DNA from: an uncultured Puniceicoccaceae bacterium
Lineage (GTDB): Bacteria; Verrucomicrobiota; Verrucomicrobiia; Opitutales; Oceanipulchritudinaceae
Direction of reading: 5' to 3'
Length of the DNA stretch: 64,000 nt
NCBI GenBank assembly: GCA_963933835.1
Contig: CAWVVV010000005.1
Coordinates: 60,287-124,286 of the forward strand
A model generated the notes under the pieces. The model saw only the letters and a list, made by a program, of their open reading frames with translations. It was not told the DNA's origin and made no database searches. Below, piece by piece: positions 1,391 through 64,000 of the stretch (position 1 is its first letter; every line of letters begins with the position of its first letter). Both the position numbers and the translations under genes were made by a program.

Positions 1391-1401
1391 GCGTAATCAC
1401 T

Positions 1402-5556: not shown

Positions 5557-5581
5557 TGTCCGGTATTATGGGTACAAAAAA

Positions 5582-6682: not shown

Positions 6683-6732
6683 GGAATGCTAGAGGGTGAA
6701 TACAAAGCCTTCAATCGAAAATAAGGATTAGT

Positions 6733-10951: not shown

Positions 10952-12759
10952 CTTGATTGAGCTCCTCTCATATATGCGAGCGCATCGGTTGCCGGATTTT
11001 GCTCCGGTGCAAGCGCGTAATACTCGATTAACTTTTCCCCAATCTCCTGAAAAACGGGCGCGGCGACCACACCGCCATAAGCAATTCTTCGGTTACCATT
11101 TTCATCGATCACATTGGCGTCATCTACCATAATCGTAATTGCAAATCTCGGTGCGCTCGCGGGGAAGTATCCCGTAAAAGAAGCGTAGTGATTTCGGCGC
11201 GAATATTTACCGTCGATAATCTTGCGAGCTGTGCCCGTTTTCCCTGCAACCTCAAAGCCATTGATAGCGGCCCTACGGGCTGTGCCACCTTCCATAACGA
11301 CACCTGTCAGCATCTTGGAAAGGAGGTGCGAAGTCTGTTCGCTCAACACTTGACGACGAGAGCGATGTGCAAACTCCAAAACGGTTTCACCCTTGTCGTC
11401 CAAAATTCGTTTCACGATACGCGGACGCATCAACTGCCCATTACTGGCTACACTCGACATAGCCAAATGGACTTGCATCGGTGTCGCACTCACAGCGTAG
11501 CCTGCTGGCAAGCGAGTTATCGTTAACCCGTCCCAGTTCTTTACTGGGTGTAGCATCCCATTCGTTTCACCGTTCAAGCGCCAACCAGTTGGCTCCCCGA
11601 ACCCAAACTTGGCGGCGTAATCGTGCATGCGCTTTTCACCCAACTGTAAGCCGAGCTGAGCAGCTCCCCGATTACTCGACTTCGACACCACTTCCGCGAG
11701 TGTCAGGTCCTCATAGGCGTGACTATCAGAGGGAAGACTAAGCACCCGACCCCTATATTCTACCTGAGCACTACCACAATCGATGATCGAACGCGGGTGG
11801 ACAAGCTGCTCTTCGAGGGCAGCTCCCACCGCTACAATTTTAAAAGTTGAGCCAGGTTCATACTGATCGCTCACTGCCCGATTGCGATGAGCCGCGAGAT
11901 CACTTTCCCAAAAGCTATTGGGATCAAAGGTTGGGTAGTTCCCGAGGCCAAGAATATCTCCAGTCAGTGGGTCACTGACAATGATCGTCGCACCTGCGGG
12001 ATCATAGCGCTCTGCTATTTGCTCTAGAGCTTTTTCAACGTAGCTTTGAACTACGAGGTCAATCGTGAGCTCTACATCATAGCCTTCACGCGCTTCCACT
12101 TCACGAATTCTAAACTGAGCGAGCTCTCGACGATGGGCATCCCCTTCGGTCTCTCTCCATCCGGATTGTCCTCCGAGATAAAAGTCCAGCCACTGCTCAA
12201 CCCCCATAACCGCTTTGTCTTCACGATTCACAAAACCTATCAGATGCGATGCGAACGTACCAGCTGGATAATAGCGTTCGTAGTAAAGATTCCCATACAC
12301 GCCTTTGACCCCAAGGCCCATAAGTTCTTCGTGCAGTTCTGGATTGATTTTGGCGATCTTGATCCATCGGCGACGGTTTGCAGGATCCGAACTCGCTTTC
12401 TCTAGCTTAGACAAGATAGCCCGAGGGTCGATCGCAAGTTCCTCGCCTGTCTTCGTTTGAAGCGTGTGCAGCAATCCTTGAAATGCTGCGCGATCTTTAA
12501 GCTGATACACTTTTGGATCCACTCCGAGGCGAACGCGCGGCCTCGTTGTTGCGAGCAAATTGCCCTTCTGATCGATGATGTCTCCGCGACGGCCAGCCTC
12601 TGCGATCATCAATGAGCGCGACCCTGACGCAAAGTCTACGTATTCACCACGCTCATACACTTGCAAAGCAGATAAACGAACCAACACGCATGCGAAGGCA
12701 ATGATTACAACCGCAGCCAAGAAGCCCAAACGCCATGAACTGATAAAAGTCTTACACAT
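10948..12759 (-). CDS. ftsI: Class B penicillin-binding protein (FtsI/PBP3)
   Basis: N-terminal TM, RGDIIDQKG, EPGSTFK (SxxK), SSN, KTGTA motifs; dcw position. Confidence 0.93.
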   Translation of the reverse strand: MCKTFISSWRLGFLAAVVIIAFACVLVRLSALQVYERGEYVDFASGSRSLMIAEAGRRGDIIDQKGNLLATTRPRVRLGVDPKVYQLKDRAAFQGLLHTLQTKTGEELAIDPRAILSKLEKASSDPANRRRWIKIAKINPELHEELMGLGVKGVYGNLYYERYYPAGTFASHLIGFVNREDKAVMGVEQWLDFYLGGQSGWRETEGDAHRRELAQFRIREVEAREGYDVELTIDLVVQSYVEKALEQIAERYDPAGATIIVSDPLTGDILGLGNYPTFDPNSFWESDLAAHRNRAVSDQYEPGSTFKIVAVGAALEEQLVHPRSIIDCGSAQVEYRGRVLSLPSDSHAYEDLTLAEVVSKSSNRGAAQLGLQLGEKRMHDYAAKFGFGEPTGWRLNGETNGMLHPVKNWDGLTITRLPAGYAVSATPMQVHLAMSSVASNGQLMRPRIVKRILDDKGETVLEFAHRSRRQVLSEQTSHLLSKMLTGVVMEGGTARRAAINGFEVAGKTGTARKIIDGKYSRRNHYASFTGYFPASAPRFAITIMVDDANVIDENGNRRIAYGGVVAAPVFQEIGEKLIEYYALAPEQNPATDALAYMRGAQSR

Positions 12760-13196
12760 CAGCGGCTAAGCCCTCGAACAGCTTCCATCGAAGCGAGATC
12801 AAAAGTCTGGCGATAGGGTTCTGATTGTCTTGAATTCTGGCTTGGCTCTTCCGTGGTCGGAGCCGGGACATAGAGGGTACCCATGCGAATAACTTGTTCA
12901 GTAACTGGACGACGGAGCGTCAGTCCCATTGCTATGGCGCGTTGATGAAGCGTATCCGGTCGGCTGAGGCGAGCAATCCGGGCGTTAAGATACTCGAGGC
13001 GTTGTTCAGCATCAACTTGTTCGATCTGAACTTTTTGGATACGCCCTGCTGTATCCGAAATTTGCTGACGCAACCAAACCAGTCCGAGTCCCCCAACTGC
13101 TACAATCGCTACGATCAAGCAGGTGAGCGTGATTCCCTGATGCCAAAGGATCGAGCGAGCGGGAGCTGCGGGCTGTCTTCGTGGTGATGAGATCAT
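12759..13196 (-). CDS. FtsL-like bitopic coiled-coil protein
   Basis: Sits between rsmH and ftsI; TM helix then coiled coil ending LSRPDTL. Start at ATG 13196 overlaps the rsmH stop (ATGA). Confidence 0.7.
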   Translation of the reverse strand: MISSPRRQPAAPARSILWHQGITLTCLIVAIVAVGGLGLVWLRQQISDTAGRIQKVQIEQVDAEQRLEYLNARIARLSRPDTLHQRAIAMGLTLRRPVTEQVIRMGTLYVPAPTTEEPSQNSRQSEPYRQTFDLASMEAVRGLSR

Positions 13197-14140
13197 GATG
13201 CAGGGATTTCGGCAGTTTTGCGTAAAAGGCGGAGTTTCGCAGAGCGTGAACGCGGGTTTATTTCGCACTCAGCATCGTTGGGAGAAATTGGGCGGCGGCT
13301 AATTTCGACGGCATAGACAGAGCGCTGGTCGGCTGTGCGATTATCCCTCGCACCCTCGGGTCGACCCGACATCTTCCGACAAAAACGCTTCGCGATGCGG
13401 TCTTCGAGTGAATGAAAACTGATGACGGCAAGGATGCCTCCAATTTTGAGACGTTCGAAAGCCTTCGGAAGGACGTTCTCAATCACTTCTAGCTCTCGAT
13501 TGATCGCGATCCGAATACCCTGAAAAGTGCGCGTAGCAGGGTGGATTTTACTACGCCGCCGAGCAGCCGGCCCAACAACTTCTTCAATCATACGAGAGAA
13601 GGAAAGGGTCTGCTGAAGTTCACCTGTCCCGCGCGCGCTCAAAATTGCCTGCACGATCCGACGCCACATCTTTTCTTCTCCGTAACCACGGATTGCGCGT
13701 ATGATATCCGCTTCGGGGGCATTTTCGAGGAACTCGCCAGCTGTCTGTCCCTCATTCGGGTTCAGACGCATGTCCATCGGGCCATCGAGACGGAAAGCAA
13801 AGCCGCGTTCAGCGGTGTCATAATGATAGGATGAGAGTCCAAAATCGAAAAGCATCCCGTCGAAGACTCCTTCTGTCAGTTCGTCTATATCTTCAAAATT
13901 TCCGGGAATGAATGATAACCGGCCCGCAACCTCTTTTGCCAGAGCCTCTGCTCGTGGTGCTGCCTCCGGATCGACATCGAGGGCCACGAGAGTGTTTCCC
14001 GGGTGAGCTTCGAGGAGAGCCCGCGCATGACCACCGCCGCCGAAGGTGCCATCGAGCAGTCTCTTTGGTCCATTGGCAGCCTCAATGCCGAGCAAAACGT
14101 TTTCGAGAAGCACTGGAATATGTCCACCTGTCATCAACAT
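13193..14140 (-). CDS. rsmH: 16S rRNA m4C1402 methyltransferase
   Basis: Motifs HIPVLL, DGTFGGGGH, DGPMDMR, HPATRTFQGIRI, ISFHSLEDR, NPRSRSAKLR. Confidence 0.96.
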   Translation of the reverse strand: MLMTGGHIPVLLENVLLGIEAANGPKRLLDGTFGGGGHARALLEAHPGNTLVALDVDPEAAPRAEALAKEVAGRLSFIPGNFEDIDELTEGVFDGMLFDFGLSSYHYDTAERGFAFRLDGPMDMRLNPNEGQTAGEFLENAPEADIIRAIRGYGEEKMWRRIVQAILSARGTGELQQTLSFSRMIEEVVGPAARRRSKIHPATRTFQGIRIAINRELEVIENVLPKAFERLKIGGILAVISFHSLEDRIAKRFCRKMSGRPEGARDNRTADQRSVYAVEISRRPISPNDAECEINPRSRSAKLRLLRKTAEIPAS

Positions 14141-14149
14141 CCAATTCCC

Positions 14150-14599
14150 TTAGATATCGAGCTCCTGCATGGCGCTGAGCATATCAAAGTCTTCGTCGTT
14201 TGCCTCATTGAAGCGATCCGCGCTCCACACCTGGAAAAAGCGTCCGAGGCCAACCATCACGACCTCTTTTTCAACCCCAGCGAAGCTTAGTAAATTCTTG
14301 GGCATGAGGATCCGCCCCTGCCCATCGCAGCCAAATTTGCTTCCTCGACCAAAAACGCCACGGAGGAGGCGGTTTGCCTTTAAGTCACCTACTTTGAGCG
14401 CAGCGGCGCGCGCCTTGAGCTGAGCGAGCATCTCCGGGGGAAATACGGCCAAACACCCTTCTGGATGGGGCCAGGCAAAATAGTAGTTCCCTTCGTCCCC
14501 TGGCACACGCCAGCCAGAAGGCACCGTCACACGATTTCGCGCATCAAGGCGGTGCGTGAATTCGCCAAAGTAATCGACGGTTGTGGGGGTAGTGGTCAT
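14150..14599 (-). CDS. mraZ: Division/cell wall cluster transcriptional regulator MraZ
   Basis: Two DxxxR repeats (LDARNRVTVP, CDGQGRILMP); first gene of the dcw cluster. Start placed at ATG 14599 because the longer ORF overlaps the operator repeats. Confidence 0.92.
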   Translation of the reverse strand: MTTTPTTVDYFGEFTHRLDARNRVTVPSGWRVPGDEGNYYFAWPHPEGCLAVFPPEMLAQLKARAAALKVGDLKANRLLRGVFGRGSKFGCDGQGRILMPKNLLSFAGVEKEVVMVGLGRFFQVWSADRFNEANDEDFDMLSAMQELDI

Positions 14600-14619
14600 G
14601 GGTTCCTGTCCTCTTGAGG

Positions 14620-14657
14620 ACATTTCGAACCACTTTCTGCCACTTCGCCCCACTTCG
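14620..14657 (-). promoter_or_regulatory. MraZ-binding direct repeats (dcw box)
   Basis: Minus strand reads GAAGTGG-ggc-GAAGTGG-cag-AAAGTGG-ttc-GAAATGT: four units at exact 10-bp spacing just upstream of mraZ. Confidence 0.8.
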
Positions 14658-15021
14658 GTCAAGCCGAGATGGTATTAATTCGCACTGTTTCAAGGACTTA
14701 GATCATCGTGCCAGTCGCCGCTCTGTATTTGCCCACATCTTATTCACGCTCATTCAGAGGCCAAAACACCAAGCACCTTTCTCCAAATACCCCTGAAGAA
14801 GCCCATGAAACCAAGAGAAAGCATTTACCCTGAGATACTTACAGTATTTTAATACTAGCCCACCTCGCAATTTAGTGAATAACCTTTCCAGATTCAATAA
14901 ACCTAGAACTTGGCACAATTCCGGTCGAACTTAGGGCTAAATAAACCCTCTATATTGGGCTCTTAAACCAACTAGCTCTCGTTCGTAGATCCCATCTTGA
15001 TTACCTTAAAACTACTGCTTC

Positions 15022-21872: not shown

Positions 21873-23651
21873 ATGCCCCTCCCGAAGACTGATCGCAGCG
21901 CTTTTTGCGTTCTATGCCTGCTCCTCACCTCTTGTTTTACCGGAGCCCTACACCCTGAGACTCAAGTCGTAGGAACCCAAGCTGAGCTCTTTTCGGCCCT
22001 CGAGCAGATCAAAGCCGGTGAGACCGTGCAGCTGGCTTCAGGGACATGGGAAGATCTCAACCTCGTCCTCGATATGGAAGGGACGGAGGAAGCACCCATC
22101 CATATCATCGGTGCGGCAGATGGTTCGACCGTCATTACAGGCATCTCTTCGATTCAAATTGGCGGCGATCACATCGAGATCGCCAACTTACACTTTCGCA
22201 ACGCCGAGCCACCTGAGAATTCACGCACGCGCAATCAAGTCAGCCAAGGGGTTGTATACGAGCCCGTAAACCGAGCTAGAGTTGGAGGCCAACGCGACGC
22301 ACTGGTCCAATTTCGGATTGGGAAAGAGGACTATGCTCAGCACTGCCGTATGACCAACTGTTGGTTTGAGGACTGTAATCCAGCTGACCCCGACCGGCGC
22401 TATATGTGGGTACGACTTTACGGGCGCGAGCACCGCATCGATCATAACCTATTCTCTGGGATGGAACACAGGGGCGTCATCATCCAAGCCGTCATAGTTG
22501 AGGATGACGCTCAGCACCGGATCGATCACAACCACTTCCTTGATCGTGCTCCCGGCGACAGAAACAGCTTCGAAACGATACAATTCGGCCATAGCTACCA
22601 CTCTGAAAAAGACGGAAACAGCATCATCGAGAACAACCTCTTCGAAGCCTGCGATGGAGAGACTGAAATCATCTCGGTCAAAACCTGCGGGAACATTATC
22701 CGCGGCAACATCTTCTATCGCTCCCGCGGCACCCTCACACTTCGTCACGGCGACAATAATTTGGTCGAAGGCAACAGCTTCCTCGGCGAGAACAAAGCAG
22801 GCGCCGGAGGCATCCGCATCATCGGCCGCAACCACCGCGTCGCTAATAACTACTTCGAGGGTGTGTCTGGAACAACCGGTGCCACCATCGTCATCTATAC
22901 CGGCATCCCCGACTCCCCGCTCAACGGCTATTTCGAAGCCCATAACGCCGTGGTCGAAAACAATTTCATCTACAATGCACACGGCAATGGCATCCACCTA
23001 AACGGAGGCTATGGCGCTCGAGGAAGAACCCTCTTTCCAAAGAACGTCACTGTAGCGAATAATCTGATACACCTCTCGTCCAACTCCCCTGTGCAAATCA
23101 TCGGCGAACTGGATGATGCCACCCTCACCGGCAACGTCCTCGCCGAAGGCAACGAAACAGGCCAACGTAGGATGGAGGGGTTCACGGTTAAGAAGCTGTC
23201 TTTTGAGCGGAAGGATGATGGATTCCTTACCGCCCTCGATGAGACCGGCAGCGCTGTCTTCGAATTCAGTGGCCAAGCGCCGCGCCTACTCGAGCGCTCT
23301 GAGGTCGGTCCGAACTGGCTAAGCCCGTTGAAGCCACTTGGAACGTGGAACCCAGATTCAACTGCGCACCCAGATCAAATAACGCGACCACGACTCACCC
23401 CTCACGCTCGATCAGACTCTGAAGAGCTACTTGCTGGGAACCGTTCGAGAGCGGCCAATCTTGAGTCATCATTCCAGCCGATCGGAGAAAATCCTTCAAA
23501 GCATTCTGCAAATCGCCCGGCCACCAATGCAGCCAATGGGTATAGAGGTCTGGCTTATCAAAATGCACCGCAGCGAGCGGTAGCAGCCCATCGATCAAGA
23601 GTGTATCCGCGCGCGGAGAAGCAACTTGGTCCGACCAAACCTCTCCGGTGA
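21873..23651 (+). CDS. Polysaccharide lyase family 6 (alginate lyase/chondroitinase B-type beta-helix)
   Basis: Signal peptide; GTEEAPI, HRIDHNHF, ETIQFG, NNLFEACDGETEIISVKT (catalytic Lys), LTLRHG (catalytic Arg), GGIRIIG. The last ~90 aa look non-homologous and overlap the convergent gene. Confidence 0.88.
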   Translation: MPLPKTDRSAFCVLCLLLTSCFTGALHPETQVVGTQAELFSALEQIKAGETVQLASGTWEDLNLVLDMEGTEEAPIHIIGAADGSTVITGISSIQIGGDHIEIANLHFRNAEPPENSRTRNQVSQGVVYEPVNRARVGGQRDALVQFRIGKEDYAQHCRMTNCWFEDCNPADPDRRYMWVRLYGREHRIDHNLFSGMEHRGVIIQAVIVEDDAQHRIDHNHFLDRAPGDRNSFETIQFGHSYHSEKDGNSIIENNLFEACDGETEIISVKTCGNIIRGNIFYRSRGTLTLRHGDNNLVEGNSFLGENKAGAGGIRIIGRNHRVANNYFEGVSGTTGATIVIYTGIPDSPLNGYFEAHNAVVENNFIYNAHGNGIHLNGGYGARGRTLFPKNVTVANNLIHLSSNSPVQIIGELDDATLTGNVLAEGNETGQRRMEGFTVKKLSFERKDDGFLTALDETGSAVFEFSGQAPRLLERSEVGPNWLSPLKPLGTWNPDSTAHPDQITRPRLTPHARSDSEELLAGNRSRAANLESSFQPIGENPSKHSANRPATNAANGYRGLAYQNAPQRAVAAHRSRVYPRAEKQLGPTKPLR

Positions 23652-48966: not shown

Positions 48967-49098
48967 GCTCATCCATCTGCAGTGATCAATCAACCGTAAA
49001 TCAACGTCCAGAAGCGGATAAACAAACTCGTATCCTCTGTAGGACGGTGGGGAAACGCGGCTCAAGGCTCGACAAGGCCGATGAGACCGCTTTTTTTT
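48967..49098 (+). ncRNA. Candidate structured RNA (6S-like rod or pdh leader/attenuator)
   Basis: Nested complementary segments CTCATC/GATGAG, CCGT/GCGG, CGTCC/GGACG, CAGA/TCTG, GGATA/TATCC, followed by T8. Folded by eye only. Confidence 0.45.
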
Positions 49099-49152
49099 AT
49101 CCTTTTATGCCGCTGCAAGGGCATTTCAACAAGTGGACAATTTAAAAACATC

Positions 49153-50313
49153 GTGAGCAAATCCCCCACAAAACCTAAGATCACACCGGGCAATCGCACC
49201 TACGAAACCGCCCAGATCGAAGACCTTCTCACCTTCGCCAAGGCGCCGATCAATAAGGCCCTCGATAAGGCTGCTAAAATCGATCTCTACCGTGAGATGG
49301 TGCGGATTCGACGATTCGAGCAAGCAGCCTTACAAGCTTACCAAAAAGGAAAGATGGGCGGATTCCTACACCTCTATATCGGACAGGAGGCAACGGCAGT
49401 CGGATGCGTTTCTTTGATGGGAGACCATGACCACATCATCACCGCCTACCGCGACCACGGTCACGCACTCGCTGTCGGGATGGGGATGAACGAATGCATG
49501 GCGGAACTCTACGGCAAGTTCACCGGTTGCTCCAAGGGCAAGGGCGGCTCAATGCACTTTTTTGCTCCGGACAAAAACTACTGGGGCGGACACGGCATTG
49601 TCGGCGGGCAGACGCCCCTCGGGCTCGGAATTGCCTATGCAATGAAATATAAGGGGCTGAAGGGCTGTTGTATGTGTTTCCTCGGAGATGGCGCAGTGAA
49701 TCAAGGTGCCTTCCACGAATCTTTGAACATCGCTGCCCTTTGGGACGTGCCGGTGATCTACATTATCGAAAACAACGGTTATTCGATGGGGACCAGTCAG
49801 GTCCGATCCAGCGCTCACCCAGAACAGGGGCTCGCTCAGCGGGCCGAGGCCTACAACATGGAATGGGACACCGTGCATGGCGAAAATCTCTACGAAGTTC
49901 GCGCCAAGACTCATCAGGCGATCGAACGCGCTCATAATGAGAACCGCCCCACGATGCTCGAGATTTTCACTTATCGCTACTACGGGCACTCTATCGCGGA
50001 CGCTAATCATCACCGCTACCGGACTAAAGAAGAGATCAAGTCGTATCAGGAAAACAAAGACCCGATCGAGGTTTGGAAACGCATCCTGAATCACGAAGGC
50101 GTTCTTACCGATGAGTCAGCCAAAGAGATTGATGCAGCGGCGAAAGAAGAATCCAAAGTCTCGGTGAAATACGCCGAAGATTCTCCTTACCCACCAGCGG
50201 AAGAAATCATGACCGACGTTTACCACTCGGTCGATAACCCCGGCACCCACAACAACGAAGGGAAGATCTTCTTCAACGATCGCCTCCCTTGGGACGACAC
50301 CTACCAACCGTAG
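49153..50313 (+). CDS. pdhA: Pyruvate dehydrogenase E1 alpha subunit
   Basis: Motifs GGFLHLYIGQEA, AYRDH, GKGGSMH, GDGAVNQG, ENNGYSMGT, YRYYGHS. Start placed at GTG 49153; the ORF-track start lies within the upstream hairpin/T-run. Confidence 0.95.
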   Translation: MSKSPTKPKITPGNRTYETAQIEDLLTFAKAPINKALDKAAKIDLYREMVRIRRFEQAALQAYQKGKMGGFLHLYIGQEATAVGCVSLMGDHDHIITAYRDHGHALAVGMGMNECMAELYGKFTGCSKGKGGSMHFFAPDKNYWGGHGIVGGQTPLGLGIAYAMKYKGLKGCCMCFLGDGAVNQGAFHESLNIAALWDVPVIYIIENNGYSMGTSQVRSSAHPEQGLAQRAEAYNMEWDTVHGENLYEVRAKTHQAIERAHNENRPTMLEIFTYRYYGHSIADANHHRYRTKEEIKSYQENKDPIEVWKRILNHEGVLTDESAKEIDAAAKEESKVSVKYAEDSPYPPAEEIMTDVYHSVDNPGTHNNEGKIFFNDRLPWDDTYQP

Positions 50314-50328
50314 GTTGTCGCAGAGCAC

Positions 50329-51867
50329 ATGGCCAGCGCTCCGAGGCTATCTTTGATTGTTTGTACGCAGCCCCGCTCCGGCAGTTACCTGCTGGGCGAC
50401 CTTCTGGGGCTTGCAACAGATGTGCCTGAGCTGGAGGAGTGGCTGATTCCTACATTTCAGGTCCCTGAGGCGACTCGCTTTCGAATGCCGGATGATTTCG
50501 ATCGGCTCGCCTATGTTCGCGAACTCGTCAGCCAAAAAACGTCCGCTAAAGGCGTCTTTTCGATCAAGATAATGGGTTGGAATTTTGCTGAGTTCATCGC
50601 TGAAATGCAGCAGCGCTCAGAATTTGCAGGCTCAAGCAAACGCGAGATCTTAGAAGCGCTCTTTCCCAATCCACACTTCCTTTTCCTCCGGAGGAGCAAC
50701 CACTTGAGCCAAGCGGTCTCCTACGCCAAAGCGATCCAGACACAGCAGTGGCGGGCAGAGCACGAGAAACGCCGTCCTACTGGCCACGTCAGCTACTCCA
50801 CTCTTTTCGTCCGGGACCAGTTTGTAGCGATCAACAAATCTGAGGAGCGCTGGAAAACATTCTTCACCCAGTCAGATCTCAAGCCATACGAACTTATCTA
50901 CGAAGACTTTCTCAAGGAGCCTCTACAAACCCTGGGCAAGATCTGCGAGTGGCTCAATCTATCGCCTACCTCAAACCTCCCAGTGGTCGAAAAACGGCTC
51001 AATGAAGGGCGCCAGTCGAGTGTGACGAACGCTGAATGGAAAAAGCGTTTTGCGGCCGAAGAAACTAGTCTGAAAGAGCGAACAGAGCCCCCGGTAAGAT
51101 TCCAAGCTGGGACGCTCACCCTCTCGGTTGAGAAACCGGCACTGAGCATCGAAGCTTTCAAAGCAGATAAACTAGAGGTCGTGATCACCAACCAAAGCAC
51201 GCAGAGCTGGAAGGGCGGTGAAGCAGCCTATAATCAGGATGAAGGCTGGTTAGTCGTCGCCGGCAGCCTACCCTCCGAAGACGGCGTAATCGACTACCGC
51301 CCCTACGTTTTCCAAGAAGTCCCCTTCCCTCTCCAGCCTGGAGAGTCGATGGCGCTCGAACTATTTTTTCCCGCGCGGAGCAAAAGCGGCGTCTACCCAT
51401 TCAACATAGCCCTAGAGCAACACCAGGACGGGCGATGGCAGAGCATCTCTGCGCCTACCGAAGTACGCCTCGAAGTTCGAAAAACAGTCAAACTCATCGA
51501 AGCCGAGGGTGTTTTTCCCTCTCTCGAGGAACTGACCGCCAACCAATGCCGTGTCCCTGGCCTCGGCATTTTCTCGCACCGCAATTTTCCTTGGATACAC
51601 CATCAACAGCACGGCTGGATGTTCATTGATGTCAAAGGATCGAGCGCACATGAGATCTGGCTACACGATGAGGTCCTCAAATGGCTTAGCTTCGACCCGG
51701 ACCAACCGGGGCAATTCTTCGACTACGAGCGCAAAGAAACGATTCGCTTCGTGGATTGCCAAGACGGAGAACGTCACTTTTATAACCTCGCTTCTTGTAA
51801 GCAGGAAACATATCCTCTACAGAAAATATCAGCACACGTTCCAGAAAGCACACTCGCCGGCAACTAA
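50329..51867 (+). CDS. Stf0-family sulfotransferase fused to a beta-rich domain and a Trp-rich C-terminal module
   Basis: 5'-PSB loop CTQPRSGSYLL, GVFSIKIM, 3'-PB LRRSNHLSQAVSYAKA..TQQW, YED, RQS..N.EW..RF; then an Ig-like segment (VVITNQS..W..PLQPGES..GVY) and FPWIHHQQHGW. Confidence 0.8.
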   Translation: MASAPRLSLIVCTQPRSGSYLLGDLLGLATDVPELEEWLIPTFQVPEATRFRMPDDFDRLAYVRELVSQKTSAKGVFSIKIMGWNFAEFIAEMQQRSEFAGSSKREILEALFPNPHFLFLRRSNHLSQAVSYAKAIQTQQWRAEHEKRRPTGHVSYSTLFVRDQFVAINKSEERWKTFFTQSDLKPYELIYEDFLKEPLQTLGKICEWLNLSPTSNLPVVEKRLNEGRQSSVTNAEWKKRFAAEETSLKERTEPPVRFQAGTLTLSVEKPALSIEAFKADKLEVVITNQSTQSWKGGEAAYNQDEGWLVVAGSLPSEDGVIDYRPYVFQEVPFPLQPGESMALELFFPARSKSGVYPFNIALEQHQDGRWQSISAPTEVRLEVRKTVKLIEAEGVFPSLEELTANQCRVPGLGIFSHRNFPWIHHQQHGWMFIDVKGSSAHEIWLHDEVLKWLSFDPDQPGQFFDYERKETIRFVDCQDGERHFYNLASCKQETYPLQKISAHVPESTLAGN

Positions 51868-51912
51868 TCACGGCCAGCCCACTTTAAAGATACCCTTAGA
51901 CTTCTAGAAATC

Positions 51913-52902
51913 ATGCCAATCATCACATATCGCCAAGCTATCAAAGAAGCCCTCGCTGAAGAGCTCGAACGGGACGAAAACGTTTTTATTATGGGTGAAG
52001 AAGTCGCCCAATACAACGGTGCTTACAAGGTAACCGAAGGACTTTGGGACCGCTTCGGTGACAAAAGAGTCATTGATACTCCGATCTCAGAAGCAGGTTT
52101 TGTCGGCCTCGGCGTCGGCTCGGCGATGTTGGGCCTGCGCCCTGTTCTCGAAATTATGTTCATGAGCTTTCTCTACGTTGCGTGGGATCAGGCTCTAAAC
52201 AATGCAGGCACCGTGCGCTACATGAGCGGTGGTTTGAGTAATGTTCCGATTGTCATTCGCGGACCTGCCAACGGTGGAACGAATGTGGGAGCGACGCACT
52301 CACACACCCCGGAAAACATGATGGCGAATTACCCCGGTGTGAAGGTCGTCGTCCCATCAACACCGGCGGACGCCAAAGGACTCATGAAATCCGCGATCCG
52401 AGACAATGACCCCGTTTTCTTCCTTGAGAGCACTGTCCTCTACGGCAACGAAGCTGAGGTTTCGGACGATCCTGAGCTCCTCGTCCCGATTGGAAAGGCC
52501 GACGTCAAACGAGTCGGCACCGACCTCTCCATTATTTGCCACGGACGCCCAGTTCTCGAATCCCTCAAAGCTGCCGAGATTCTAAAAGCTGAGCACGATA
52601 TCGACGTTGAAGTGGTCGACCTGCGTAGCATCCGTCCACTCGACGAAGCTACTATCATAGAATCGGTGAAAAAGACTTCTCGCGCCCTGCTCGTAGATGA
52701 AAACAAGCCGTTCTGCGGAGTCGGCGCGCAAATCTCTCACCTCATTCAGCGGCGTGCCTTCGACTACCTCGACGCACCCGTTCACCGCATCAGTGCGGTT
52801 GACGCACCAGCCATCTACAGCCCGCCGGCCGAGAAATTGCAGCTCCCAGATGCACAGCTCATCATCCGCGAAGTCCTCGATATGTTCAACGCGCGTGCCT
52901 AA
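51913..52902 (+). CDS. pdhB: Pyruvate dehydrogenase E1 beta subunit
   Basis: Motifs MGEEVAQYNGAYKVTEGL, DTPISE, GATHS, DLRSIRPLD, FDYLDAP. Confidence 0.95.
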   Translation: MPIITYRQAIKEALAEELERDENVFIMGEEVAQYNGAYKVTEGLWDRFGDKRVIDTPISEAGFVGLGVGSAMLGLRPVLEIMFMSFLYVAWDQALNNAGTVRYMSGGLSNVPIVIRGPANGGTNVGATHSHTPENMMANYPGVKVVVPSTPADAKGLMKSAIRDNDPVFFLESTVLYGNEAEVSDDPELLVPIGKADVKRVGTDLSIICHGRPVLESLKAAEILKAEHDIDVEVVDLRSIRPLDEATIIESVKKTSRALLVDENKPFCGVGAQISHLIQRRAFDYLDAPVHRISAVDAPAIYSPPAEKLQLPDAQLIIREVLDMFNARA

Positions 52903-52952
52903 TCCAACTTAACTTTTAATCTTCTTTAGTCTCAACACCCCACGAAAACACC

Positions 52953-54227
52953 ATGGCCGAAATCATTGAAATGCCGAAACTGAGTGACACCATGACAAGC
53001 GGAACGCTCGTCAGTTGGCTCAAAAAAGAGGGCGAAGCCGTCGCTGCAGGCGATATGATCGCAGAAGTTGAAACCGACAAAGCGACGATGGAGGTGGAGT
53101 GCTTCGAAGACGGAATCCTATTAAAGCAGTATCTCAGTGCCGGTGAGAGTGTTGAAATCGGTGGTGGGATCTGTGCCGTCGGCGAAAAGGGCGAAGCAAT
53201 CCCTGAAGTGAGCAACTCTAGCGGCGGATCTTCCGAGCCTGCCGCCAAAGAAGAAAAGGCTGAGGCAGCTCCTCAAAAAGCAGCAGAGCCAGCGCCCGTG
53301 CCAGCAGCGAGCCCTCCTCCTGCGGCCAGCTCCGGCAATGATAGCGGCATAAAGGTTTCCCCACTCGCTAAGAAGATTGCCGCAGAACTTGGGGTCAGCC
53401 TTAGCGGCGTTTCAGGAACAGGCCCTGGTGGCCGTATCGTTCGTGCCGATGTCGAAGCTGCCGCGAAAAACGGACCGACGCCCGACGCAAGCGCCCCTGC
53501 AGGACCTGCACCCGCTTTACTCGCGGAGGAAATCATCCCCGTTACGGGCATGCGCTCCGCGATCGCACGAGCTCTTGTCGGCTCAAAGACCCAAGCCCCT
53601 CACTTCTACCTGCAAATAGAAGTCGACGGCGCGCCCCTCTCTGAACTGCGCAAGTCTCTAAACGCCAATCTCGCAGACCTGCCGCCTGAACAAGGTGGAA
53701 TGAAATTCACGGTCAACGATCTCACTCTACGCGCTTCAGCTGAAGCTGTTCGCCGCGTTCCCGCTATCAATCGTTCTTGGATGGGCGATACGATCAAGCA
53801 ACATGGCAGTGTCCACCTCGCCTTCGGCGTTGCGATTGACGACGGATTGGTTACGCCCGTGATTCGAGATGCACACGCTAAGACGCTCAGCCAAATCAGC
53901 GCTGAAGCCAAGATCTTGATCAAGAAGGCTCGCGGCAAGAAACTGAAACCCGACGAAATGTCCGGCAGCACCCTGACGGTAACAAATCTCGGGATGTTTG
54001 GCATCTCGGACTTTTACGGCATCATTAATCCACCAAATGCCGCGATCCTAAGTATCGGCGCCACAATCAAGACACCTGTGGTGGCTGACGATGGCAGCAT
54101 CGTCGTCGGTTACCGGATGAAAATTGGCTTAAGTGGCGATCACCGCGTCATTGACGGAGCTGTCGGCGCACAATACCTCGCGGCCCTCCGCGATATTTTA
54201 GAGGCGCCAGCGACAATGCTGGTCTAA
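52953..54227 (+). CDS. pdhC: Pyruvate dehydrogenase E2 dihydrolipoamide acetyltransferase
   Basis: Lipoyl domain ETDKATME, peripheral-subunit-binding SPLAKK..GTGPGGRI, catalytic DHRVIDGA. Confidence 0.95.
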   Translation: MAEIIEMPKLSDTMTSGTLVSWLKKEGEAVAAGDMIAEVETDKATMEVECFEDGILLKQYLSAGESVEIGGGICAVGEKGEAIPEVSNSSGGSSEPAAKEEKAEAAPQKAAEPAPVPAASPPPAASSGNDSGIKVSPLAKKIAAELGVSLSGVSGTGPGGRIVRADVEAAAKNGPTPDASAPAGPAPALLAEEIIPVTGMRSAIARALVGSKTQAPHFYLQIEVDGAPLSELRKSLNANLADLPPEQGGMKFTVNDLTLRASAEAVRRVPAINRSWMGDTIKQHGSVHLAFGVAIDDGLVTPVIRDAHAKTLSQISAEAKILIKKARGKKLKPDEMSGSTLTVTNLGMFGISDFYGIINPPNAAILSIGATIKTPVVADDGSIVVGYRMKIGLSGDHRVIDGAVGAQYLAALRDILEAPATMLV

Positions 54228-58127: not shown

Positions 58128-58634
58128 ATGAGCAACCCGCTTCCAGACTCTTCCTCAACGAGAGGTGCCCTCGATGGTCTCACAACCTTCGAGCAGGAAA
58201 TCATCGAGTTGTTTGTGCGCGGAGCACAGCTTCTGAGTCTCCCGAAGTCGGTCGGCGAAATCTACGGCCTACTCTACTCCTCGGAGCACCCGCTCACTCT
58301 CGACCAGATTGTAGAGCTACTGCGAATCTCCAAGGGGTCGGCCAGCCAAGGCCTACGCTTTTTAAGCGGCCTGGCGGCCGTGCGAAAGGTCTACGTGCCC
58401 GGTGACCGCCGCGATCACTATGAAGCCGAGGTGCGCCTCAGACGCCTCGGCGAAGGTCTATTGCGCGAAAGAGTTGATCCCCATATTCAGAGTGGCCAAG
58501 AACGGCTTGAACGCCTTGAAGTCCTCGCAGACGATTTAAGCCCCCACCTCAAAGAACGTTTTCAGCGACTTAAAAAGTGGCACACCCGCGCCCGCAGAAT
58601 GATGCCATTCTTACGGCGCATTTTTCCCCAGTAA
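58128..58634 (+). CDS. GbsR/MarR family transcriptional regulator
   Basis: LPKSVGEIYGLLY..PLTLDQI..ISKGSASQGLRFL..VPGDRRDHY winged helix. Confidence 0.85.
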   Translation: MSNPLPDSSSTRGALDGLTTFEQEIIELFVRGAQLLSLPKSVGEIYGLLYSSEHPLTLDQIVELLRISKGSASQGLRFLSGLAAVRKVYVPGDRRDHYEAEVRLRRLGEGLLRERVDPHIQSGQERLERLEVLADDLSPHLKERFQRLKKWHTRARRMMPFLRRIFPQ

Positions 58635-58679
58635 GTAACGTCCATCAACGGACCAAAGACAGTTCAACCCAGCGACCGA

Positions 58680-58725
58680 TTGGTTTCGCGCTCAAAAGAG
58701 CACGATCGACCAAGGGCGGCAGCGT
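58680..58725 (+). promoter_or_regulatory. JUMPstart/ops-like element (hairpin plus CCAAGGGCGGCAGCGT)
   Basis: TTGGTT...GACCAA hairpin with inner GCTC-aaaa-GAGC, followed by GGCGGCAGCGT, one mismatch from ops GGCGGTAGCGT. About 32 nt upstream of cysC. Confidence 0.6.
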
Positions 58726-58757
58726 AAGATTTCAACTACCACCCACACATCCACTAC

Positions 58758-59366
58758 GTGATTAAAAACATCTACCCAGAATTCGCCCGCATGCTAGGGC
58801 GTGAAGACAAGGAGCAACTGCTTAAGCAGCAGGGCATCGTTGTCTGGATGTACGGCTTGAGCGGAAGCGGGAAAAGCACGATTGCAGACGCTCTCGAACG
58901 GAAACTCCACGCAGAAGGATGGCTCACGCAGATTTTAGATGGCGACAACATCCGAAGTGGATTGAACAACAACCTTGGCTTCACCGACGAGGATCGTAGC
59001 GAGAATATCCGCCGCATCTCCGAGGTCGCCAAGCTCTACCTCAACACTGGCATTATCACCCTCACTAGTTTCATCTGCCCCCGTCGCGAGCTTCGCACCT
59101 TGGCCCGCGAAACCGTCGGTGCCTCCGATTTCATAGAAACCTATATAAAAGCGAGCTTTGAGACCTGCGCAGAGCGAGATCCGAAAGGACTTTACGCAAA
59201 GGTTAAAGCAGGCGAAGTGAAGCACTTTACGGGCAAAGACTCTGGATTCGAAGAGCCCGCAGCTGAAGACGGAGCAGTGATCGTCGATACTGAAGAAGGC
59301 ACCCTCGAAGCCTGTGTTGACCAGCTGCACGCGATCATCATCAAGCGGATTCAAGAAAAAGCTTAG
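58758..59366 (+). CDS. cysC: Adenylyl-sulfate kinase
   Basis: Motifs GLSGSGKST, LDGDNIR, DRSENIRR, RDPKGLY, FTG. Confidence 0.96.
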   Translation: MIKNIYPEFARMLGREDKEQLLKQQGIVVWMYGLSGSGKSTIADALERKLHAEGWLTQILDGDNIRSGLNNNLGFTDEDRSENIRRISEVAKLYLNTGIITLTSFICPRRELRTLARETVGASDFIETYIKASFETCAERDPKGLYAKVKAGEVKHFTGKDSGFEEPAAEDGAVIVDTEEGTLEACVDQLHAIIIKRIQEKA

Positions 59367-59404: not shown

Positions 59405-60313
59405 ATGAAACAAGACTACAATCTAAGCCATCTGAAAGTCCTCGAGAGCGAGGCTATCTTTATCCTGCGTGAGGTCGCAGCTCAATTTGAGCGACCTGCC
59501 CTACTCTTTAGTGGTGGTAAAGACTCGATCGTCGTCGCCCACTTGGCGAAGAAAGCCTTCTGGCCGGGGAAGATTCCCTTCCCACTGCTTCACGTCGACA
59601 CCGGTCACAATTTCCCCGAGACGATCGATTACCGCGACGAATACGTCAAAGAACTCGGCGCACAGCTGATCGTTGGCAGCGTCCAAGATTCGATCGATAA
59701 GGGACGGGTAAAAGAAGAGACAGGCCTCGATGCTTCTCGGAACGCCCTCCAGACGATCACTTTGCTCGATTCGATTGAAGAACACGGCATTGACTGCGCA
59801 CTCGGCGGCGCCCGCCGCGACGAGGAAAAAGCACGGGCAAAAGAACGCTTCTTCTCTCACCGCGACGATTTTGGCCAATGGGATCCAAAGAACCAGCGCC
59901 CTGAGCTCTGGAATCTCTTCAACGGCAAGATGAACCCAGGCGAGCACTTCCGCGTCTTCCCGCTCTCAAACTGGACCGAGATGGACATCTGGCAGTATCT
60001 CAAAGAGGAGAGCATCGACCTCCCAAGCCTCTATTATTCGCATGAACGCGATGTCCTCGTCCGCAAGGGCGTGATTCTCGCGGTCTCCGAGTTTGTTCAG
60101 CCACGCGCAGACGAAACGGTTGAAAATCGCCGTATCCGCTTCCGCACGATGGGCGATGCCACCATCACTGGAGCGGTCGAATCGGACGCCGACGACATGG
60201 ACAAGATCATCGCCGAGGTAGCTGCTGCGCGCCAGACTGAGCGTGGCAACCGCGCAGATGACAAACGCTCCGAAACCGCCATGGAGGACCGCAAGCGCCA
60301 AGGTTACTTCTAA
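59405..60313 (+). CDS. cysD: Sulfate adenylyltransferase subunit 2
   Basis: Motifs LESEAI, FSGGKDS, GGARRDEEKARAKER, WDPKNQRPELW, SMEDRK-like AMEDRKRQGYF. Confidence 0.97.
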   Translation: MKQDYNLSHLKVLESEAIFILREVAAQFERPALLFSGGKDSIVVAHLAKKAFWPGKIPFPLLHVDTGHNFPETIDYRDEYVKELGAQLIVGSVQDSIDKGRVKEETGLDASRNALQTITLLDSIEEHGIDCALGGARRDEEKARAKERFFSHRDDFGQWDPKNQRPELWNLFNGKMNPGEHFRVFPLSNWTEMDIWQYLKEESIDLPSLYYSHERDVLVRKGVILAVSEFVQPRADETVENRRIRFRTMGDATITGAVESDADDMDKIIAEVAAARQTERGNRADDKRSETAMEDRKRQGYF

Positions 60314-60375: not shown

Positions 60376-61620
60376 ATGGAACTTCTTCGCTTCACCACTG
60401 CCGGCTCAGTTGACGACGGTAAAAGCACGCTCATCGGGCGTCTCATGTATGACACCAAGACGATCTTTGAAGATCAGCTTGAGGCTGTCGAAAAGACTTC
60501 AAAAAACCGGGGCGACGGGCACGTCGATCTCGCTCTCCTGACGGACGGTCTTCGGGCTGAGCGTGAGCAAGGTATCACGATCGATGTGGCCTACCGCTAC
60601 TTCGCGACCCCGCGTCGCAAATTCATCATCGCCGACACTCCGGGGCACATCCAATACACCCGTAACATGGTGACCGGAGCCTCGACCGCCAATCTCGCGA
60701 TCATCCTCATCGATGCGCGTAAAGGGGTCATCGAGCAAACCTGCCGCCATAGCTTTATTGCCAGCCTTCTGCGCATCCAGCACCTCGTCATTTGTGTCAA
60801 CAAGATGGACCTCGTAGACTATGCAGAGGAAGCCTACGACAAGATCGTGAATGAATACAAAACATTCGCTTCACGACTCGACATCCCTGAAGTCACTTTC
60901 ATTCCGATCAGTGCACTCAACGGCGACAATGTTGTCACAAAGTCGGAAAAGACGCCTTGGTATAACGGGACAACTCTCCTTTATCACTTGGAAACCGTTT
61001 ATATCGGCACAGATGCGAACCTCGTCGACGCGCGCTTTCCTGTTCAGTGGGTTGTTCGCCCGCAGAGCGACGAATGGCATGACTTCCGAGGCTATGCCGG
61101 CCGAGTCGCTGGCGGTGTCTTCAAGCCAGGCGATGAAGTCACTATTTTACCAAGCGGATTCTCATCCAAAATCAAAGCCATCCACACCTGCGAAACAGAG
61201 GAGAAAGAAGCCTTTGCTCCAATGTCAGTGGCGATGACGCTTGAGGACGAAATCGATATTTCCCGTGGCGATATGATCGTCAAGGCGAACAACCAGCCAA
61301 AGGTCTCCCAAGATCTCGATGTGATGGTTTGCTGGTTCTCGGAAAAGCAATCCCTGACGCCTCGCAGCAAATTGATGATGCGACACACCAGTGCCGAAGT
61401 GAAAGCGATCGTCCAAGAAATCCAATACAAGATCGATGTGAACTCGCTTCACAAAATCGAGGATGTGCAGGAAATGAAGCTCAACGAAATTGGCCGCATC
61501 AAGGTTCGCACCAGCGCACCTCTTTTCGTTGATAGCTATCGTCGCAATCGGGTTACGGGCAGCGTTATTTTCGTCGATCCTTTCACCAACGAGACCGTCG
61601 GCGCGGGCATGATCCGCTAA
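60376..61620 (+). CDS. cysN: Sulfate adenylyltransferase subunit 1
   Basis: Motifs LLRFTTAGSVDDGKSTLIGRL, EREQGITIDVAYRYF, DTPGH, NKMD, TVGAGMI. Confidence 0.97.
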   Translation: MELLRFTTAGSVDDGKSTLIGRLMYDTKTIFEDQLEAVEKTSKNRGDGHVDLALLTDGLRAEREQGITIDVAYRYFATPRRKFIIADTPGHIQYTRNMVTGASTANLAIILIDARKGVIEQTCRHSFIASLLRIQHLVICVNKMDLVDYAEEAYDKIVNEYKTFASRLDIPEVTFIPISALNGDNVVTKSEKTPWYNGTTLLYHLETVYIGTDANLVDARFPVQWVVRPQSDEWHDFRGYAGRVAGGVFKPGDEVTILPSGFSSKIKAIHTCETEEKEAFAPMSVAMTLEDEIDISRGDMIVKANNQPKVSQDLDVMVCWFSEKQSLTPRSKLMMRHTSAEVKAIVQEIQYKIDVNSLHKIEDVQEMKLNEIGRIKVRTSAPLFVDSYRRNRVTGSVIFVDPFTNETVGAGMIR

Positions 61621-61668
61621 GATCCGGATGGAGTAAGAACACTCCAGAACACCAACCAAAGGTTATCC

Positions 61669-62613
61669 ATTAGCAGTATTCATCAGTTCGGTCAGACCGT
61701 CATTGAGAAAGAGGCGAAAGCCCTCGCTCAGCTCGCGGCGAATCTGCCCGAGTCATTTGAAGACGCGTGCCGTTGTATCACAAACTGCCGTGGATCTGTT
61801 GTTCTCAGTGGGGTCGGTAAAGCCGGTCTCATCGGCAGAAAGATCAGTGCCACCCTGAGTAGCACCGGCACACGCTCACTCATCCTTGATCCGCTCAATG
61901 CATTCCATGGCGACCTAGGGATGATCGGGACGACTGACGTCGCTCTGCTTTTGAGCAATCGAGGCGCCAGCGGGGAGGTCATCCTCATCGCTGAATACTG
62001 CCGCGAACAGAAGATCCCTATCATCGCCGTCACTCAGAGCGACTCAACCCCGCTCGCGAAGATTGCAGATATCTCGCTTGCTTACGGCGAATTCGAAGAA
62101 GCCTGCCCTCTCCGTCTTGCACCCAGCACGAGTACTACACTGATGCTCGCCCTGGGAGATGCGCTCGCTCTGGCCGTCCAGAATGAGAAAGGCTTTACGG
62201 AGTCGGACTTCTCTAAATTCCACCCCGCTGGCTCGCTCGGAAGACGGATGAAGAAGGTCGAGACGATCATGCGCAAAGGCGATCAAATCGCCCGCGTCAA
62301 ATCATCGGCACCCGTTTTTGAGGCGATGACCGCTCTCTCGAAAGCACGCTGTGGACTGTGTTTAATCACCGATGAATCAGAACATCTTGTCGGCGTTTAT
62401 TCTGACGGGGACTTCAGGCGAGACGGCATGGAGCAGATCGATCTTCAAGAACCCGTCGGTAATCGATGTGCCAGACCTGGAAAACGCATCCAGTCGGGAC
62501 GCATCGTAGGGGAAGCCCTCAACCTGATGCGCGAGGCTCGAATCAACGCCCTACCCGTTGTCGATGAAGACGGCATAGCACTTGGACTTTTAGATATTCA
62601 GGATCTTGCTTAG
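61669..62613 (+). CDS. KpsF/GutQ family arabinose-5-phosphate isomerase (SIS + CBS), apparent ATT start
   Basis: The frame is open upstream of the ORF-track start (61921): ISSIHQFGQTVIEKEA..SGVGKAGLIGRKISATLSSTG..HGDLG, then EACP..LAPSTST, FHPAGSLG and a CBS pair. No ATG/GTG/TTG precedes the SIS domain. Confidence 0.85.
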   Translation: MSSIHQFGQTVIEKEAKALAQLAANLPESFEDACRCITNCRGSVVLSGVGKAGLIGRKISATLSSTGTRSLILDPLNAFHGDLGMIGTTDVALLLSNRGASGEVILIAEYCREQKIPIIAVTQSDSTPLAKIADISLAYGEFEEACPLRLAPSTSTTLMLALGDALALAVQNEKGFTESDFSKFHPAGSLGRRMKKVETIMRKGDQIARVKSSAPVFEAMTALSKARCGLCLITDESEHLVGVYSDGDFRRDGMEQIDLQEPVGNRCARPGKRIQSGRIVGEALNLMREARINALPVVDEDGIALGLLDIQDLA

Positions 62614-62655: not shown

Positions 62656-63708
62656 ATGAGCAATAAAGTCGCCTTACTAACCGGGATCACCGGACAAGAT
62701 GGATCCTATCTCGCTGAGCAGCTAATCGAGAAAGGGTACACCGTTCACGGCATGATCCGCCGCTCAAGCAGCTTCAACACAGGTCGTATCGACCACCTCT
62801 TCAACGATCCCGAAATCTACGGAGAAAAACTTTTTCTCCACCATGGCGACCTGACCGATTCATCGAACTTGAATCGCCTACTTGAGAAGATCGAGCCTGA
62901 TGAGATCTACAACCTTGGTGCACAAAGCCACGTAAAGGTTTCCTTCGAGGTTCCTGAGTATACGGCGGATGTCGACGCGATCGGAACCCTTCGCTTCCTC
63001 GATGCGATCAAGGAAATCGGGCTCAAAGACAAAACGAAGTTCTACCAAGCCTCGACCTCTGAGCTTTACGGCAAGGTGCAGGAAGTTCCGCAAAGCGAGA
63101 CGACTCCCTTCTACCCGCGCTCCCCTTACGCTGTAGCCAAACAATACGCCTACTGGATCATCGTAAACTATCGCGAGTCCTACGATCTCTTCGCCGCAAA
63201 CGGCATCCTCTTTAACCACGAATCGCCACGGCGCGGTGAAACTTTTGTGACACGAAAAATCACCCGCGCTGCCGGCCGCATTGCGCTCGGGATGCAGGAA
63301 AGGCTCACCTTGGGCAACCTCGACGCCCAGCGTGACTGGGGTTACGCACCAGAGTTCACTGAAGGGATGTGGCGCATTCTTCAACAGGACACGGCCGATG
63401 ATTTCGTCCTAGCAACCGGAGTCATGTATCCAGTCCGTGACTTCATTCGCTGGTCGTTCAAGCATGTAGGCATCGACCTCGAATTCACCGGTAAAGGCGT
63501 TGACGAGAAAGGAATTGATCCAAAAACGGGTAAAGTCATCGTCGAAGTCAGTTCGGCTTATTTCCGTCCCTCCGAAGTTGAGCAGCTGCTCGGAGACCCC
63601 GCGAAAGCAAAGAGGATCCTCGGCTGGGAAGCTAAAACCAAAGCGGAAAAGCTCTGCGAAATCATGGTCAAAGCAGACTATGAAAAAACCAAAGCGCGCG
63701 GCTACTAG
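62656..63708 (+). CDS. gmd: GDP-mannose 4,6-dehydratase
   Basis: Motifs [58 protein letters not shown]. Confidence 0.97.
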
Positions 63709-63734: not shown

Positions 63735-64000
63735 ATGGAAAAGAAAGCTATCGATAGGACGGCACGCGTCTACGTGGCTGGGCACCGAGGCATGGTTGGC
63801 TCAGCGCTCGTCCGCCGCCTTAAAAAGGAGGGATTTGCGAACATCCTGACACGCACCCGGAGTGAGCTCGATCTCACCGACGCGGTCGCGGTCGATCGCT
63901 ACCTCACTGAAGCCAAGCCCGATGTCATGATCATCGCGGCAGCTAAAGTCGGTGGGATCCACGCGAACAACACCTACCCTGCGGAATTCCTCTACGAGAA
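63735..64000 (+). CDS. fcl: GDP-L-fucose synthase, N-terminal part (runs off window edge)
   Basis: Manual translation: [29 protein letters not shown]...ELDLTD...[18 protein letters not shown]. Confidence 0.94.

Follow-up and report, generated by a model that had tools for sequence, protein, structure and literature searches.

Does a leader element of the RfaH-recruiting type stand at the head of a polysaccharide operon outside the Proteobacteria? The question is raised by positions 58,680 to 58,757 of a 64,000-nucleotide stretch of DNA from an uncultured Puniceicoccaceae bacterium, referred to here in its entirety as the window. According to the original prediction, a hairpin followed by an ops-like sequence precedes the operon in a probable non-proteobacterial genome and is served by a NusG paralogue of altered specificity. 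The genome belongs to the Verrucomicrobiota, and the hairpin, the C at position 6 of the ops-like sequence, the distance to the GTG start and the missing Shine-Dalgarno sequence before cysC (58680-58758) were all reproduced exactly. We consider it likely that the hairpin and ops core form a conserved leader signal of the Verrucomicrobiota, which would pause RNA polymerase and load an RfaH-like paralogue for transcription through the glycan operon and, in the host family, probably also through integron cassette arrays. Judged from sequence comparisons, this is a real system of the RfaH/ops type, in a phylum new to it and with a relaxed position 6, that by score lies outside both RF01707 and TIGR01955.

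The element begins with a predicted RNA hairpin at 58680..58713 (+), in which folding and comparison delineate a basal GGTT/GACC stem, a bulge on the 3' side and a variable upper stem. The calculated energy of the 35-nucleotide (nt) hairpin is -15.3 kcal/mol (z -4.8), and none of 200 shuffled sequences equalled it. A single G at 58714 separates the end of the hairpin from the ops-like 12-mer at 58715..58726 (+), which carries a C at position 6 (58720) and an A at position 12. The numbering and the contact positions follow PMC5995543, which, like PMC13015549, PMC7593976, PMC11685472, PMC8876359 and PMC2864571 below, is cited for the portion of its text that was available. The C3:G8 pair, G4, G5, A7 and T11 of the Escherichia coli ops are all present in the window 12-mer, and T6 and G12 are replaced; among relatives, T6 is found in a minority and G12 in a majority of the sites. 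An A/C-rich spacer without a Shine-Dalgarno sequence (58727..58757, +; duplex energy +2.9 kcal/mol against an assumed anti-Shine-Dalgarno motif) leads to the GTG start of cysC at 58758, 32 nt from the 12-mer. The 19-mer at 58707-58725 occurs in three exact copies in the genome, as compared to 5e-5 expected under an order-3 Markov model. As in the JUMPstart element, the leader of the polysaccharide cluster carries a stem-loop immediately before ops. Just as in the E. coli RfaH-ops/JUMPstart system (RF01707), the GGY/RCC stem core ends one base before the GGCGGNAGC core; the leaders of E. coli rfb and waaQ agree with it in both the stem core and the gap of one base. A small peptide reading through the repeated core was also considered but discarded, because the reading frames differ among the copies. 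No sigma70-type promoter was detected for the leader or for the regulator gene that precedes it. The leader is covered by contigs of one marine metatranscriptome sample (58579-58776 and 58596-58808); these document presence only and are not used as evidence.

Two genes in the genome encode NusG domains. One of them, located in a tuf-secE-rplK cluster and scoring over the family cut-off, is the housekeeping NusG. The second encodes a protein of 176 amino acids (aa) and stands alone on contig C1, unlinked to the window operon; with it, the NusG paralogue that had been postulated is found in the genome. Its family scores are 89.3 bits for RfaH, 67 for UpxY (under the cut-off of 100 bits), 58 for LoaP and 47 for NusG. 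RfaH was also the family with the best E-value for a 29-member paralogue alignment, and E. coli RfaH was the top match for the protein in both sequence and fold searches of the PDB. The DNA contacts of E. coli RfaH are provided by K10, H20, R23 and R73, and a T6A change leads to an approximately threefold defect in vitro (PMC5995543). The residues corresponding to K10, R16, H20, R23 and R73 in the paralogue are S, L, L, R and A. When 75 paralogues were compared to E. coli RfaH, Arg138 was conserved in 75, Glu48 in 71, His20 in 16, Lys10 in 13 and Arg73 in seven. With respect to the fold-switch positions, E48 and I93 are retained in the host paralogue and F130 is replaced by V; in the structure model the C-terminal domain is of mixed type, and residues 138-150 form a helix with a predicted local distance difference test score of about 70. 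The genome contains two Rho homologues, both below the cut-off (C1:47802-49205 and C4:195938-196990), one of which is part of a 725-aa frame. Searching the named genome collection with the paralogue sequence alone gave no match.

The arrangement recurs in relatives as a cassette consisting of a regulator gene, an rfaH-like gene, the hairpin-ops element and glycan genes; in the window version the rfaH-like gene lies elsewhere rather than between the regulator and the leader. When that collection was scanned with a 19-letter pattern, at least 120 stretches matched. Among the 80 matches listed, 42 carry Verrucomicrobiota labels (counting Kiritimatiellales, Pontiella and Victivallales as members of the phylum), and 36 of the 38 others fall within long open reading frames (ORFs). 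An rfaH-like gene ends 77-168 nt 5' of the motif in 18 of these 42, and the first genes on the 3' side, as read from the sequences, resemble nucleotide-sugar enzymes. Independently of the motif, the paralogue alignment was used to select 48 loci, in 47 of 201 genomes of the phylum. Here the motif lies 80-195 nt 3' of the paralogue gene in 13 of the 48, and any ops core is present on the same strand in 17 and on the opposite strand in two. The basal stem is paired in 16 of 17 protein-picked, rfaH-adjacent leaders (shuffles predict 7.0), and in a larger set, selected in part by its 5' arm, the upper stem varies in sequence and length with its pairing kept. Across the 201 genomes, in which kin are not independent, 30 of the 47 that have the paralogue contain the motif, as do 27 of the 154 that lack it; for a narrower form of the motif the values are 23 of 47 and 6 of 154. 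In most genomes of family f18 the paralogue gene is unlinked and the sites are still present. The motif is thus conserved in relatives, occurs in the leaders of glycan operons and is in many of them physically linked to the paralogue gene. Homologues of the regulator lie approximately 50-280 nt 5' of the motif, or approximately 620-950 nt where an rfaH-like gene intervenes, in loci that were mostly selected by motif or by rfaH. At some hairpin-ops leaders, in or near glycan loci, the genes that follow are runs of the nucleotidyltransferase-HEPN or PIN toxin-antitoxin type (L079:3496-8914 and L077:12332-13889).

The C at position 6 was originally taken to signify a paralogue of altered specificity. 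Among 70 sites of the host family with an ACCA[AC]G prefix, a few of which are chance matches within genes, this position is C in 60, T in eight, G in two and A in none. The 13 protein-picked sites contain C in ten, T in two and G in one, and family f18 has ten of T and ten of C. Both T6 and C6 sites occur together in the single-paralogue genomes G008, G009, G096, G134 and G109; in G009, eight near-identical leaders carry C6 in six cases and T6 in two. In G025 and G035, paralogues that have kept Arg73 adjoin C6 sites. A co-variation of T6-to-C with R73-to-A was accordingly rejected, given the C6 sites beside Arg73 paralogues and the mixture of bases within genomes. From these alignments, the predicted readout of position 6 is relaxed (C > T > G) and independent of residue 73, which recalls the free DNA-loop base of the Bacteroides opsX (PMC11685472).

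By analogy with E. coli RfaH, RNA polymerase would pause at T11, and the non-template strand would fold into a mini-hairpin closed by C3:G8. As in Bacteroides opsX, the RNA hairpin, ending approximately 13 nt before the pause, may act as a pause hairpin. The paralogue would then load, exclude NusG and shield the transcript from Rho, again as in E. coli, probably reading the site via a different surface with no base-specific contact at position 6. In the host genome it would act in trans, given that its gene resides on another contig.

Integron arrays under the same core had been missed in the earlier reading. Numerous sites in relatives have no 5' arm of the glycan type, and short genes on the same strand follow them in runs; five antisense ORFs behind such array-type sites exceed the integron-integrase cut-off (TIGR02249). 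In a survey that started from the integrases, 19 were located in 16 of the 37 genomes of the host family. At ten of the 19 (in nine of the 16 genomes) the cassette strand carries the motif no more than 1.5 kilobases (kb) away; the intI strand carries it at none. Six sites are positioned 73-879 nt past the 3' end of intI (G002, G003, G009, G012 twice and G017) and four are on the 5' side, at a distance of 215-314 nt from the start of the integrase match (G023, G242, G243 and G245); one further integrase-linked site, in G005, is doubtful. A covariance model of attC, built from 12 sites including those of three positive G009 loci, replaced two home-made patterns, one too strict and the other blind to strand. 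Applied to 82 sources, it gave 59 matches, all of them 3' of, and on the same strand as, array-type sites (G002, G007, G009, G012, G020, G096, G134 and G243, with most in G009), and zero matches in glycan loci or in the window. The array-type sites thus display the hallmarks of integrons, namely an integrase over the TIGR02249 cut-off and short, attC-bounded genes on one strand. Their leaders contain a stem in a register of its own, closing two bases earlier than in the glycan type; in 12 of 17 leaders this stem directly adjoins the motif, where 4.1 are expected. Leaders from different genera have the core and the stem register in common and are otherwise unrelated in sequence. Within genomes, leaders have been duplicated (eight aligned copies in G009 and seven in G012). 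On comparative grounds, the association between ops and integrons is well supported in this one family. The notion that ops is part of attI was dropped as a general rule: with intI in between, more than 1.3 kb separates the element from the cassettes. A group II intron reverse transcriptase is encoded on the opposite strand within one ops-led cassette array (L103:9176-10540), and degenerate tandem repeats of approximately 7 nt flank the array leaders at L099-L104, at L084-L086 and at the C3 copies of G000, the host genome.

The host genome itself has further exact copies of the 19-mer at C3:291827 and C4:75656 and a degenerate one at C1:89050. A fourth, partial leader copy at C3:15727 (E 1e-8) has no ops core. 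Beneath it lies a decayed, attC-bounded cluster without an integrase (C3:15727-18319, or L467:2728-5320). Of its five short genes, two are interrupted by internal stops; by reading, the encoded proteins include a membrane protein, a GNAT-like protein and an RNA-binding-like protein. Four weak attC-like sites (E 0.0035-0.14), including the best attC match of the genome, are situated at the gene ends, and the first cassette starts at the position occupied by a hairpin arm in the other leader copies. We read the three extra ops copies as putative left-over leaders of arrays. Behind the C4 copy lies an antisense gene of 473 aa, which was examined as an integrase and rejected, since it is an isochorismate synthase.

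Several observations weigh against the hairpin and ops core as a loading site for the paralogue. The A at position 12 makes the window site weaker than a TG pause. No match to RF01707 was found in the window at the gathering threshold (35 bits), nor at E<=10 on 58500-58900; elsewhere in the genome there were seven weak matches, none at the window site, with 150 of 542 candidates scored, and the loci of six relatives contained none. The paralogue falls short of the RfaH cut-off of TIGR01955 (89.3 versus 144.5 bits) and four of the five E. coli DNA-contact residues are gone from it, so that sequence-specific loading is not guaranteed; in a 2026 preprint, RfaH homologues lacking the ops-binding residues are ops-independent (PMC13015549). 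The pattern is absent from 17 of the 47 paralogue-bearing genomes, a few of which carry variants, and G019 (98% complete) has the paralogue and zero sites. Conversely, G017 (94%) has glycan-type and integron-type sites and no paralogue match, and G010 (89%) has sites and only a NusG-level match. One might suppose that a constitutively active paralogue loads in cis, with the hairpin-ops serving merely as a pause that gives time for binding and without any readout of sequence. This account would be in keeping with the loss of most contact residues, with the frequent placement of the paralogue gene directly 5' of the site, with the ops-independence in a reporter of monomorphic RfaH homologues found beside their own operons (PMC13015549) and with the fit of ops to the consensus pause (PMC5995543). 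It is nonetheless rather improbable. G4, G5, A7 and G8, which are needed for recruitment and dispensable for pausing (PMC5995543), are invariant in the sites, an invariance that stems in part from the choice of pattern but not in the 13 protein-picked sites, where only position 6 is free. Furthermore, the gene is unlinked, with sites kept, in the host genome and in most of family f18, Glu48 and Ile93 are retained, and the structure model has a helix in the C-terminal domain. A specificity switched from T6 to C6 would accommodate both the prevalence of C (60 of 70 family sites and ten of 13 protein-picked sites) and the Ala at residue 73 of the host paralogue. We regard it as very unlikely in light of the T6 and C6 sites that coexist with one paralogue, the even split in family f18 and the Arg73-bearing paralogues that adjoin C6 sites; this part of the original prediction did not hold. 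Least credible of all is a function with no connection to RfaH, in which the element would serve the GbsR/MarR-like regulator as its operator or act as a simple attenuator. A regulator gene does precede most glycan-type sites, but the upper stem is free in sequence with its pairing kept, which fits an RNA structure rather than a DNA operator. In addition, there is no T-run 3' of the element and the terminator scan called none at the site, the geometry is identical to that of the E. coli JUMPstart, and the array-type sites have no adjacent regulator gene.

For the integrons, the proposal is that one RfaH-like factor may run a two-part regulon of surface-glycan operons and integron arrays. Where the site is located past the 3' end of intI, approximately 1.3 kb of intI would have to be transcribed in antisense, untranslated, before the cassettes are reached, and it is there that protection from Rho would matter most. 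A promoter-hairpin-ops module set ahead of the array, in many cases past the far end of intI, could in this manner give a termination-proof transcript that traverses intI and reaches the distal cassettes. We hold this extension only tentatively, at somewhat less than even chances. If it is true, the regulon would lift the position gradient that silences distal cassettes and perhaps damp the integrase. Counting against it, nine of the 19 family integrases are without the motif, several having short flanks (<600 nt 5'), and outside the family just four of 71 have it (G096 twice, G169, and G109 at 1.9 kb), with the remainder at background. The attC model is built partly from the three positive loci. 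The host genome contains no integron integrase (TIGR02249 search), its three extra ops copies share a leader of approximately 110 nt and head no array, and an array-leader profile from G009, with the core excluded, misses these extra leaders. The array-type sites could instead be hitch-hikers, that is, promoter regions copied from glycan leaders, 3' of which cassettes came by chance to accumulate, with no antitermination role at integrons. The patchy distribution outside the family, the host copies just described, of which only the one without an ops core heads an array, and the inflation of counts by leader duplication within genomes are all in line with this. We judge it unlikely, though not markedly so, given that array leaders from different genera have nothing in common beyond the core and their own stem register and that the orientation to the cassettes is fixed at two different positions relative to intI. 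Such hitch-hiking would concern the integron part alone and is compatible with the loading of an RfaH-like paralogue at the window site.

Among known systems, that of E. coli RfaH and ops is the nearest. In both, the element lies in the leader of a surface-polysaccharide operon, the paralogue is closest to RfaH and its gene, in the host genome, is unlinked. The window system differs in its phylum, its longer two-part hairpin and its free position 6; on the verrucomicrobial side, Lys10, Arg16, His20 and Arg73 are not kept, RF01707 gives no score and integron arrays are served as well. With the Bacteroides UpxY/opsX system it shares a non-proteobacterial NusG paralogue at capsule operons, a pause hairpin and a free loop base (PMC11685472). 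The verrucomicrobial core, in contrast, has a loop of RfaH length rather than the opsX form, and nearly all genomes searched have one paralogue for several sites, not one per operon. Moreover, whereas the UpxY gene comes first in its own operon, the host paralogue is unlinked, with operon linkage in many relatives. RfaH cluster CL4 of Wang et al. (2020, PMC7593976) and the cis-encoded monomorphic homologues (PMC13015549) likewise place an rfaH-like gene beside a helix-turn-helix regulator and envelope-biogenesis genes; the available portions of these two papers name neither Verrucomicrobiota nor a target site for them. RfaH has been recorded in 23 of 117 phyla, with approximately 95% in Proteobacteria and one cluster beside a helix-turn-helix regulator (PMC7593976), and the source taxa of JUMPstart are gamma-Proteobacteria (PMC2864571). 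The protein family may already be catalogued in the data set of PMC7593976 or in the supplements of PMC9247905 or PMC13015549; Verrucomicrobia are unmentioned in the main texts of PMC5737381 and PMC9247905. As with the integron promoter Pc and the CALIN (clusters of attC sites lacking integron integrases) arrays, a leader on the cassette strand lies 5' of attC-bounded short genes (PMC8876359), but here the promoter region with ops is situated between intI and the array or past the 3' end of intI. The available portion of that integron-expression review does not mention RfaH. Literature searches, in a collection without most subscription papers, gave nothing among the papers listed on ops in Verrucomicrobiota or at integrons. 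The element offers a candidate site of NusG-paralogue recruitment beyond Proteobacteria and Bacteroidota, and its natural variation, with a free position 6, lost contacts and two hairpin registers, makes the origin of sequence-specific loading by RfaH-like proteins testable. If the integron link is true, antitermination would be a way of expressing long cassette arrays that goes unmentioned in the available part of PMC8876359, and the motif would be a marker of cassette arrays as well as glycan loci in a phylum whose annotation is poor.

The operon itself lies on the forward strand. A gene for the GbsR/MarR-like regulator of 168 aa (58128..58634) precedes the element; its sole family match, to CudC (NF047500), is below the cut-off (E 3.6e-13). 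The element is followed by cysC, encoding adenylyl-sulfate kinase from a GTG start (58758..59366; TIGR00455, 218 bits, cut-off 138.7), cysD (59405..60313; over the cut-off of TIGR02039) and cysN (60376..61620; over that of TIGR02034). An open frame for a KpsF/GutQ-like sugar-phosphate isomerase (61630..62613) contains a SIS domain match that begins well 5' of the first ATG, GTG or TTG (61921). The gene probably uses a non-standard start codon, because both the open frame and the SIS match precede the first common one. Next are gmd, for GDP-mannose 4,6-dehydratase (62656..63708; TIGR01472, 557.6 bits, cut-off 415), and the 5' part of an fcl-like epimerase/reductase gene (63735..64000; Epimerase PF01370, E 4e-16), named fcl from its sequence and the gene order. 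The latter is truncated since the window ends where contig C5 ends. The products of cysCDN and of gmd and fcl are activated sulfate and GDP-fucose, and the predicted gene content fits a sulfated surface glycan. The designation as a polysaccharide operon thus stands in part: it draws on the precursor genes and on the operons of relatives, but the operon is cut at the contig end, and queries with operon proteins of relatives turned up no glycosyltransferase cluster in the rest of the assembly. The remainder of the glycan locus is absent from the assembly of this 1.94-Mb (megabase), 97% complete genome.

The missing Shine-Dalgarno sequence before cysC had been taken as a sign of coupled translation. 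In the genome as a whole, a word of the GGAG type precedes only 8% of 466 long genes, and pairing at -3.5 kcal/mol or better is seen for 16% of genes as compared to 27% of random 17-mers, using an assumed anti-Shine-Dalgarno motif, the 16S end not having been found in the assembly. Such motifs are therefore scarcer before genes than in random DNA. As the depletion is genome-wide, their absence before cysC says nothing on ribosome loading of the RfaH type and was rejected as evidence for coupling.

Elsewhere in the window, positions 452-14662 on the reverse strand contain a complete cell-wall and division cluster, and a chondroitinase B-family gene is located at 21873-23651. An operon of the pyruvate-dehydrogenase type (49081-54227) carries, between its E1 alpha and beta genes, a gene for a 512-aa Stf0-type sulfotransferase, which may consume the activated sulfate provided by cysCDN.
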